A stretch of 63,975 nt of DNA, the filler included, from Thermoplasmatota archaeon (GTDB lineage Archaea > Thermoplasmatota > E2 > JACPAO01 > JAHFTW01), in assembly GCA_041623215.1 (NCBI GenBank). It is 5 parts of 5 records of this genome, joined end to end, with 100 filler letters (N's around TTAATTAATTAA, not from the genome) between each part and the next. Parts side by side here need not be neighbours in the genome. Positions count along the whole stretch, not along the records: positions 29,669 to 44,015 come from JBFJXH010000039.1; 4 more parts are not named here. One strand, written 5' to 3'. Below are positions 39,001 through 42,000 of the stretch, piece after piece; the stretch's first letter is position 1; every line of letters starts with the position of its first letter. The position numbers were made by a program.

Positions 39001-42000
39001 CCTACGAACGGGGCTCAAGCATTCTGCATGATCCCGTAGCGGGTGCCCAGACAACAGACAACGTCTTGCTGGCGCGTCTGCTAAGTCTGCTACCTGGCGT
39101 GCTGAGCTTGTAGGTGGGACGAGGCGGCAAGCCCCCGGCAGGGCTCTCTCAGCTCGTCTTCTAACCTAGTGGCGAATCGTTTCTTGGAGGTTCAAGAACA
39201 TCTCGGTGAGCAAGTCCTCAAAGACGGTGTTCTTGTATTCCTTCTCTTCGCCGCCCTCGGTCTCAGTGCGGGCCACAAAATGCTGGCCGTCCTTGACGAG
39301 GTCAATGTGGCAGACGAATTCTCCCATGGGCGGCGCGACCCGGCGTTGTTCTTAGAGCTTATCCAGCGGGTCAATCGGTCCTAGTGGGGCCGCGTCACTT
39401 GCTTGAGCGGCTTCCACCGGTGGGCCCGCCGCTTCTAGCCCCGGGGCCTGCGCCACGCCCGCCGCGGCCGGACCGCGCTGCGCCGCTAGATCCCCCGCCA
39501 CCGCGACCACCGCGACCGCCACGGCCCCCGCGACCGCCGCGACCGGACCGACCACTACGGCCACTACGGCCGCTACGACCCGACCGGCCAACTGTTCCTG
39601 TGCCGCCCCGGGTCGCCGGCGATTTTTCGCCAGGCCCCCCGGCGTCCGGCTTGCCACGCGGCCGGGTTCGGATTGCTTGGCCTGCTGAGACCCCGGCGGG
39701 CGCCTTCTCGCAAAACACGCGCGCCACGTTGCGGGCCAACAGGAAGCCCTTGTGCAGGGTCCGGTTGAGGTCCGACTTCAGCGTTTTGGGAACCATCAGC
39801 ACGCCGTCAACATCCCGCACGACGCCAATGTGGACCTCGTCGTCCGGGTCGAGGATTTGCTGGTGGCTGGTCGTGGTGTCGCCGTCGTTCAGGCTGAGTT
39901 TCAGCACCACCGTATCGAAATGCTTGGCATAAAGGACGTGCAAGGTGTGGGCGGCAGCTTTTGGCACGCGCCGGTCGGCTGGGGACTCCATGGCCGTGAC
40001 AATCATTCGGTGGTCCTCGAACCAGAATTCGTCACCCACTGCAATGACCTCGTCCCGTGGCGTTTCCAGGTGACTCTGGTGGCTGGTATCGCCGTGGCTC
40101 ACAACGACGGGGACCATGACGGTTTTCTGGCTCTCAGGAGCTTCCTTGTGGATGTGCTTGCACTCCAGACATTGCAAGGTGAGGCTTGTTTGCGAAGCGC
40201 GCAGCACCGCGTGGTCTTCGGGGCCGCAATCGGGGCATACTGCGCCGACCACGTCTAGGTCTTGTTCATTGTCCATGGCGCTTCCACTCGCCCTCTCCTT
40301 TCAAGTTTGGCCCCGCCCCGAGCCGTGGGCGCCGGGGCTAGAGCTTGCGCAAGTAGGGAAATCCAGTTCGCTTGTTGACCGCAACTTCGTACTCGTCAGG
40401 CAGGTCGCAAGGGTCGCCACTCATGGGCTGTCGCTTGCTGAAAAAGTAGATGCGCTGAATGTGGCCGCCCTTGAGCTCCACTTCCCGGACATGGAGAGTG
40501 TAGCCGTCGTGCTGGTACGCCATGGTGTTCCATCGAGGAGGGCCATTTGGCTGCTTGCTTCAGGCGTGAACCCACAAATGTGGTGGCCGAGGGCGCACCG
40601 CCATGCCGTTCAGTCCCTGATGCCGCGCTCGTCCACGGTCACAACCGCTTCACCCTCGGGCAAATGGGGCGAGTCAATGAGGCGACAAATGCGGCGCCCG
40701 CCCTTCGATTTGCGGAGGTAGATGCGAAACGTACTGGTGTGGCCGACGATGTGGCCGCCAATGGGTGTCGTGGGGTCGCCAAAGAACGCATCCGGCTTCG
40801 CGGCCACCTGGTTTGTAACAACGATGGCCAAGTTGTGCAGCATGGCCAAGCGCTGCAAGTCATGCATGTGTCGGTTCAGTTTCTGTTGCCGGGGTGCCAG
40901 GGAATCACGCCCGATGTATTCGGCGCGAAAGTGCGCCGTCAGGCTATCCACAATAATGAGGCGGATGTCACGTTCGCGGCACAACTTGGCCGCCTTTTCC
41001 ACGAGCAGCATTTGGTGGTTTGAATTGAAGGCCCGTGCGACATGGATGCGGCCCAGGACTTCTTGGACATCCATGTCCCATGCCTCCGCCATTTGGGTAA
41101 TGCGTTCGGGTCGAAACGTGTTCTCCGTGTCGATGTACAATGCTTCCCCCTGCAGTCCTCCTTCGCCCTGGTCTCGTTGCACATTGACGCATAATTGGTG
41201 CCCAAACTGGGTCTTGCACGAGCCAAATTCGCCAAAGAATTCGGTGATGGCCTGCGTCTCAATGCCGCCGCCGAGAAGGTCATCGAACGCGCGGCTCCCC
41301 GTGGCAATCTTATCGACCGTTTCCCGGCGTGCCGCGACATCGATGCCCGTCTCGAAGCTCCCCACGTCCGCCAATTCCCGCGCGCTGGCAATGATGCGGC
41401 TGGCAACACCTTCGCCAAGCGAGCATTGTTCGGCTAGGTCGGCCGGGCTTGCTACGGCAAGAGCCATCAGGTCATCAAAACCGGCATCGCGCAGCCGCTC
41501 AGCCGTTGCCGGCCCGATGCCAGGTAGGTCATCGATGGTCATGCGAATGACGGTCTCGTCTTGCGGTCGCGCCGCGGCGGCAGCTTCTGCATCGCGGCCT
41601 GCGGCCGCTAGTGCGTCTGCGTCGTCACGGCCGGCGGCGGGCATCATGGTCCCTGAGCAGGCGGTCAAGATCGGCCGAGTTCAGCGGCTTGCGCTCCCGC
41701 CCCGGCTTTGGTTTAGGGTCGTCGGGCGCGTCGTCCGTAACGGGCGTCGGGGAGTCATCGTCGGGCGACTTGGCTTGTGGCCATGGAGTTGGTGAGCGCC
41801 CTGTCGTGGGCGACTCGGGGTCTTCTGGTTCGGATGGCGCTGGCGGCCATGCGACCTTCGAGGGCGCAGGTGGTTCTTCTTGGGCCCGTTGCCCCGTCTT
41901 TGGCCAGGCGGGAGAATCGTCCCGCGGTGACGGGGCAGCCTCCTTGACCTTGGGGGCTTCGGCTGACTCTGGCTCGTCGTCGGAGTTGCCTTTTTCGGCG

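Follow-up and report, generated by a model that had tools for sequence, protein, structure and literature searches.

The loss of histones and Alba dates back to the root of the Thermoplasmatota, and some lineages of this phylum have no known nucleoid protein, according to the sections of PMC7613761 that deal with them. The locus described here raises the question of what a small protein of no named family, encoded directly behind radA, does in such an archaeon. A preliminary description proposed that it is a DNA-binding module acting as a chromatin protein or as a RadA partner in a lineage that lacks histone, Alba and HU. The window, that is, the whole analysed stretch of 63,975 nucleotides, consists of five contigs of the source genome (G000, 88% complete) joined by N spacers, and the mini-gene sits on contig C39. 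Its ORF is intact, encodes the 61-aa protein P0001 and starts 86 bp past the radA stop codon. The spacer to the downstream CPxCG zinc-finger gene is 61 bp, and this gene adjoins the mini-gene in 14 of 30 loci of the class (E2). A sigma-70 and terminator scan of the spacer behind radA, using models that exclude archaeal promoters, returned no match. The features of the locus are collected in Table 1.

Table 1. The mini-gene and its surroundings, in window coordinates
Feature	Position	Strand	Basis and remarks
Acidic 53-aa ORF, convergent with the CPxCG gene	39166..39327	+	No Pfam match; codon rank 190; relatives have similar ORFs in this position
CPxCG zinc-finger protein with Arg/Gly-rich tail, downstream neighbour	39395..40276	-	PF19769, E 4e-38
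Stand-alone gene for P0001 (61 aa), member of an unnamed family of basic beta mini-domains	40338..40523	-	ORF, profile, model
86-bp spacer between radA and mini-gene	40524..40609	-	Probable own promoter, judged from relatives; weak TATA-like word only
radA, Rad51 with N-terminal HHH_5, upstream neighbour	40610..41647	-	Pfam (Rad51 match, E 1e-88); start likely, per gene call
761-aa ORF, Lys/Ala/Glu-rich, low-complexity, running into radA, cut by contig end	41625..43910	-	No Pfam match

Is the protein a member of a known family or fold? A Pfam scan of P0001 gave nothing at E<=1, and no model from Pfam, PHROG or NCBIfam matched more than 2 of 74 family members. PADLOC returned no hit for P0001 or for P0271, a copy from the Patescibacteria (CPR), and the ESM Atlas matches were to unnamed clusters only. 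The AF2 model, built from an alignment of 74 relatives, is all-beta with a pLDDT of 95.2; a model from a bacterial alignment has the same strand order, and neither contains a helix. Foldseek against the PDB gave a best E of 0.44, and VIA-align against 48,161 chains a best Z of 2.4 for the archaeal model (rmsd 3.6, 53 aligned) and 2.5 for the CPR model (rmsd 2.9, 51 aligned). The earlier characterization as an all-beta protein with neither a Pfam family nor a strong fold match is thereby upheld. The weak rows of the fold searches are mostly beta-trefoils and propeller blades, and they decide neither the newness of the fold nor its distinction from a listed family. Both models are matched by the uncharacterised siphophage protein A0A8S5TRK4 in BFVD (TM 0.77/0.74, E 5e-3/2.5e-3), which shares the predicted fold at 16-29% identity, has no assigned function, and places the fold also in a phage. 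A uS17 extension found by PDB sequence search (E 0.096) was treated as a chance match, as were the weak matches to Nmad4 and NAM, each to single proteins. Prediction of a homodimer of the domain scored 0.12, with controls not folded.

Five copies had been counted in the source genome. All five tblastn matches are real (C39, C98, two on C144, and C214), but stand-alone genes are found only on C39 and C98; the other three are domains inside two long proteins. Both C144 matches lie within one acidic ORF of 466-477 aa, and the C214 match falls close to the C-terminus of an ORF of 239-285 aa that has hydrophobic stretches. By profile search the domain is present in 80 of the 81 class genomes, as near-universal as first stated, and in 49 of the 151 genomes of the phylum sample; outside the class it was found in 16 genomes out of 117 and not found in the other 101. 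The archaeal genomes mostly have 2-9 domain matches each, and the family comprises 981 clusters at 50% identity.

The preliminary description missed a bacterial and viral branch of the family. One bacterial-type member, used as a query, identified 292 loci in the genome collection; of the best 80, which were examined, 69 were assigned to Patescibacteria by title or synteny, and the other 11 include Chloroflexota, Planctomycetales (Planctomycetota), Bacteroidota and Verrucomicrobiota. In an even draw of the Patescibacteria phylum to which genome G198 belongs, 64 of 301 genomes, about a fifth, carry the gene, with one match each, and it was not found in the remaining 237. The domain also occurs in eight viral contigs and one annotated phage; a search of viral contigs with the archaeal alignment and a plasmid search gave no match. 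The family extends beyond the archaea, occurring as a single-copy gene in part of the Patescibacteria and also in other bacteria and in phages. Two more divergent forms were seen, one in P0388 (206 aa), N-terminal to a 140-aa domain without a name, and one with a shortened hairpin in P0387 (316 aa), following a coiled-coil-like region; the family therefore likely extends past these searches.

The position behind radA would fit a dedicated RadA accessory factor, a mediator or a filament modulator. We scored a link where the mini-gene lies at most 600 bp behind radA and counted among the matches listed, 138 weaker matches being left out. On this count, 32 of the 80 class genomes with a radA match have the link: 19/24 in the window's family, 12/24 in family f4 and 1/1 in f6, three families that belong to different orders. 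The linked copies lie directly behind radA on the same strand, mostly 43-209 bp away. Also in favour of such a factor is the gene divergent from the mini-gene in 6 of the 80 bacterial loci, which we take from its sequence to be lexA-like. The link is not class-wide, however, since among the matches listed it occurs in 0/31 genomes of the six other families, so the adjacency claimed earlier stands for three of the nine families. Linked and unlinked f4 copies, which are almost identical, share a TATA-like box, a GGAGG Shine-Dalgarno sequence and a T-rich tail, and thus look separately transcribed. No RecA-like group appears among the 25 largest neighbour clusters of the 80 bacterial loci, where the neighbours differ by lineage. 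The RadA-partner reading of the preliminary description is weakened by the families that lack the link and by the promoter elements shared in f4, and we regard it as highly improbable. The radA linkage is old yet optional, and the protein is likely a reusable module for DNA binding and not a partner dedicated to RadA. As to radA itself, the source genome encodes a second RadA (G000:C3:13140-14528, minus strand), 76% identical and with an N-terminal extension resembling extra HhH repeats, and two radA matches occur in 9 of 24 family genomes.

Charge and codon use were compared across the family. A pI of at least 9 was obtained for 50 of 52 stand-alone copies. The window copy is the lowest at 7.9 and the C98 copy has 9.5, the same values as before on recomputation. 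Domains inside long, often acidic proteins are net positive in 333 of 352 cases, and seven positions are Lys or Arg in 74-94% of 426 domains. Conserved residues of P0001 are L10, F27, F28, P42, G54, P56 and L58, with basic positions 13, 18, 21, 30, 52, 59 and 60; the aromatic run is conserved and exposed-looking. Nucleic-acid binding of some kind is predicted and, in our view, likely.

Codon ranks in the source genome were computed for 1803 genes from our own gene calls, with a ribosomal-protein reference picked by eye. As in the earlier ranking, the C98 copy stands high (36/1803, z 2.9) and the radA-linked copy is middling (460/1803, z 0.8). In the CPR genome G198 the mini-gene ranks 23 of 1119 (z 4.0), among ribosomal proteins; judged from their sequences, the genes ranked nearby are ribosomal, cold-shock-like and RRM-like. 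Over the 80 bacterial loci, in which kin are not independent, the C-versus-T odds ratio at Phe/Tyr/Asn/Ile codons relative to neighbours is 3.17, higher in 73, with a four-fold-site control of 0.96. The corresponding values for 30 archaeal loci, again with kin not independent, are 1.89 and 1.64, so the archaeal signal is weak, because the control partly matches it. From codon use we infer high expression.

The flanks of the gene were examined as well. By eye, the bacterial copies are preceded by promoter-like boxes and, in most cases, followed by hairpin-plus-T terminators. Promoter-like, Shine-Dalgarno and terminator-like flanks are seen for the CPR and f4 copies and are weak in the window; the CPR and f4 flanks suggest a single-gene unit. 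In Peribacteria-type loci (L035, L047, L087) a TAACCC word lies 5-15 bp before the start codon, replacing the Shine-Dalgarno sequence. A single-gene transcription unit is one of the criteria for nucleoid-associated proteins (NAPs) given in the relevant sections of PMC7613761, and at 61-68 aa the members are also under the <290 aa stated there. Further criteria of that paper are known or predicted DNA binding, for which charge and fusion partners offer indirect evidence; an outlying abundance in the proteome, for which codon use as a proxy is high in the CPR and C98 copies and ordinary in the radA-linked one; and enrichment in the nucleoid fraction.

The same charge and codon evidence would serve equally for an abundant RNA-binding protein, such as a cold-shock-like chaperone or a ribosome-associated factor, whose fused forms would tether RNA or ribosomes to the membrane. 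This alternative, which also draws on the company that the mini-gene keeps in the G198 ranking and on the many membrane-anchored forms, is unlikely in our estimate. None of the 25 largest bacterial neighbour clusters is a ribosomal operon, which speaks against it, and the fusion partners bear on it further.

We scanned 109 long homologs (103 representatives and 6 picked). HHH_5 was present in 30 of them, in agreement with the reported fusion to helix-hairpin-helix domains, and a CCCH/DUF5763 zinc finger in 11; DUF2188 occurred in 3, an Lrp ligand domain in 2 (neither with a helix-turn-helix match), parts of amino-acid permeases in 2 and endonuclease VII in 1. Several members, for example P0055 and P0056, have Lys/Ala-rich tails. 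The zinc fingers and the basic tails fit RNA equally. Partners with established DNA roles nevertheless dominate, and we favour DNA over RNA as the ligand because these partners include HhH, Lrp, endonuclease VII and, in the bacterial set described below, Shedu, with Mrr alongside them.

At least two hydrophobic segments were found in 25 of the 103 long representatives; the domain stands at the end of long acidic linkers, and tandem copies with short linkers also occur. P0025-P0047 and P0066-P0140 form a large group of two- or four-helix membrane proteins in which the domain stands at the end, once or twice; DUF2188 is present in some. They are candidate membrane tethers. The hydrophobic segments and the permease fusions also fit a protein adaptor, an interaction or self-assembly module that would link membrane proteins, acidic scaffolds and immune effectors, the stand-alone form being an abundant adaptor. 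The terminal position on acidic linkers, the short-linker tandems, the TIR and NTPase fusions and the aromatic run all accord with this idea. We nonetheless hold it to be distinctly unlikely, as the strong positive charge is kept even within very acidic proteins and the partners are mostly nucleic-acid domains.

A second set of 63 long forms is mostly bacterial. Here the domain lies N-terminal to the Shedu nuclease (SduA_C) in 3 proteins, beside DUF4365 and TIR in 2 and with Mrr in 1, and it is C-terminal in 3 whose NTPase matches are weak. Two pairs of the Shedu fusions were compared and showed 36-40% identity; these fusions may therefore reflect one event and count once. Several other bacterial fusions, to LexA, NUDIX, DJ-1 and GlyRS, look like read-through or assembly artefacts. 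The N-terminal domains of Shedu proteins have been proposed to be sensors, many of them nucleic-acid binding, in the portions of 10.1101/2023.08.10.552793 that describe them. The mini-domain occupies the same N-terminal place in its three SduA_C proteins and may be one of the unnamed clusters N1-N59 listed there. It differs from the sensors described in those portions in being mainly a stand-alone, housekeeping-like gene and in having no helix, unlike the sPC4/Whirly and NRF1 folds.

Upstream of the bacterial copies we identified a recurrent AACCTG word. It was counted 106 times before 55 of 78 copies, where dinucleotide shuffles give 7.6, and 27 times in 35.7 kb of other intergenic DNA. A further 24 loci contain 11 occurrences, spread over 7 of them, where 1.9 would be expected. 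The word often lies between -35-like and -10-like boxes as repeats or a palindrome, and AACCTG(T/A) repeats, often palindromic, lie within the promoter spacer, for example at L087:2390-2500, L047, L070 and L078. These sites are a candidate operator of the Patescibacteria. The palindrome AACCTG-N4-CAGGT occurs only at the mini-gene promoter in 4 of 5 genomes, which were picked for having it. One viral copy has two AACCTG sites, and just 2 of the 11 non-CPR bacterial loci have the word. Upstream of archaeal copies it is not enriched (1 in 31 loci against 2.5 expected). Other promoters of G198 show a mild enrichment of half-sites in either orientation, so these sites may be bound by a different regulator. 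An SOS-box reading was rejected, the exact palindrome occurring once in G198, and the motif does not look like a box with many targets. On contig C1 of G198 there is also a short dispersed intergenic repeat that contains AACCTG (for example at 75822, 147430, 159870, 347226, 447389 and 800706).

A repeated or palindromic motif in the promoter spacer of the CPR copies is what a sequence-specific transcription factor with a small regulon and AACCTG-type operators would be expected to show, and in the Lrp-like protein the domain takes the DNA-binding slot. The ribosomal-protein-like codons point to an amount of protein well beyond the needs of a local regulator, archaeal copies lack the motif, and archaeal genomes mostly carry several domain matches; we consider such a factor very unlikely.

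Does the family take the place of other chromatin proteins? Searches of the 88% complete source genome revealed no HU, histone, Alba or MC1, as originally noted; MC1 was sought in this genome only. Alba is present in 56 of the 81 class genomes and in none of the 24 of the window's family, that is, in 0/23 of its other members, and HU in 14/81 and in 9 of those 23, consistent with the previous counts. Histone-like matches occur in 7 of 81 class genomes, one of them strong, and all 5 CPR genomes tested that carry the mini-gene have HU. Relatives with Alba also carry the domain, as had been pointed out, and the coexistence with Alba and HU means that the family is no simple replacement for them. 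The chromatin proposal has accordingly changed shape: its binding-module and nucleoid part gains indirect support from charge, fusions, codons and the promoter motif, and the framing that starts from a lack of histone, Alba and HU in the lineage loses ground, since the family is kept with or without Alba or HU and is widespread in bacteria. The radA-linked copy is the least basic of the 52 and has ordinary codons, and of the two stand-alone genes of the source genome the C98 paralogue makes the better candidate for a chromatin protein. Other small or basic proteins of this genome were noted: a basic 235-aa protein with HhH-like repeats (by eye) and a Lys/Ala-rich tail (G000:C33:10550-11257, minus strand; codon rank 18/1803, z 6.2), which is a rival chromatin candidate, and two small proteins with high codon ranks that look AbrB-like (G000:C62:3127-3519, plus strand; rank 183) and ribbon-helix-helix-like (C7:3777-4007, minus strand; rank 87).

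Known chromatin proteins offer several points of comparison. Cren7 and Sul7d, of crenarchaea, are all-beta proteins with an SH3-like beta-barrel fold. They have about 60 aa and a pI of about 10 (PMC7613761, Table 1), and the mini-domain resembles them in size, pI, all-beta structure and proposed nucleoid role. It differs in its lineages, which include bacteria, and in its use as a fused module; the Pfam profiles of Cren7 and Sul7d matched 0 of 74 members at E<=1, and no PDB sequence match fell below E 0.09. No profile of histone, Alba, HU or MC1 matched P0001 or the 74 members, and both models lack helices, unlike these folds. A candidate NAP of Methanomassiliicoccales (WP_019177984.1 / AGI86273.1) is described in PMC7613761 as a basic, lysine-rich protein of 70-74 aa with a predicted novel fold. 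It is likewise small, basic, shared with bacteria and from the same phylum; compared by length, pI and range, it differs in its reported range (Methanomassiliicoccales, Sphingomonadales, Rhodobacterales), which is not that of class E2 and CPR. The other candidates of Hocher et al., of 70-154 aa, also have another range. A search of the full-text literature, subscription journals lying outside its scope, yielded no description of the mini-domain family, nor any work on comparable nucleoid proteins of CPR.

The reading that we favour, although we would place it a little below an even chance, is that of an abundant nucleoid-type DNA binder that also serves as a mobile DNA-binding module. The stand-alone small basic all-beta domain would act as an abundant nucleoid-type protein, and the fused domain would recruit its partners, among them membrane proteins, regulators and nucleases of defence systems, to DNA. 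Nucleic acid would be contacted through the basic beta-hairpin and a conserved arginine turn near the C-terminus, with a loose sequence preference and, in CPR, self-repression at AACCTG sites. The copy next to radA would then be a paralogue of moderate expression that has a promoter of its own and has stayed beside radA in some of the class. Points against this nucleoid and module reading are the pI (7.9) and codon rank (460) of the window copy, the C33 protein as another chromatin candidate, and the 237 CPR-phylum genomes and 101 phylum genomes outside the class in which the gene was not found; the scarcity of AACCTG outside the CPR copies speaks against self-regulation. In a further-reaching version, to which we assign a low probability, the family would be a hitherto undescribed chromatin protein with its own fold, common to class-E2 archaea and CPR, that represses its own promoter at AACCTG; membrane-anchored versions would tether the chromosome to the membrane, and Shedu, TIR and NTPase proteins of immunity would have co-opted it, either to sense DNA or to act as a decoy for chromatin-attacking phage proteins.

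This mini-domain may bear on the chromatin of the Thermoplasmatota. A protein of this kind, soluble, 61-66 aa long and confidently modelled, with hundreds of natural variants and a candidate operator, can be tested at little cost. Should RNA be its ligand, it would still represent a new module, abundant in two groups about which little is known. If it binds DNA, a new DNA-binding domain would be named and about 1000 protein clusters annotated; the sensor of a Shedu subfamily would be identified, and the finding would point to membrane-anchored DNA tethers in archaea.
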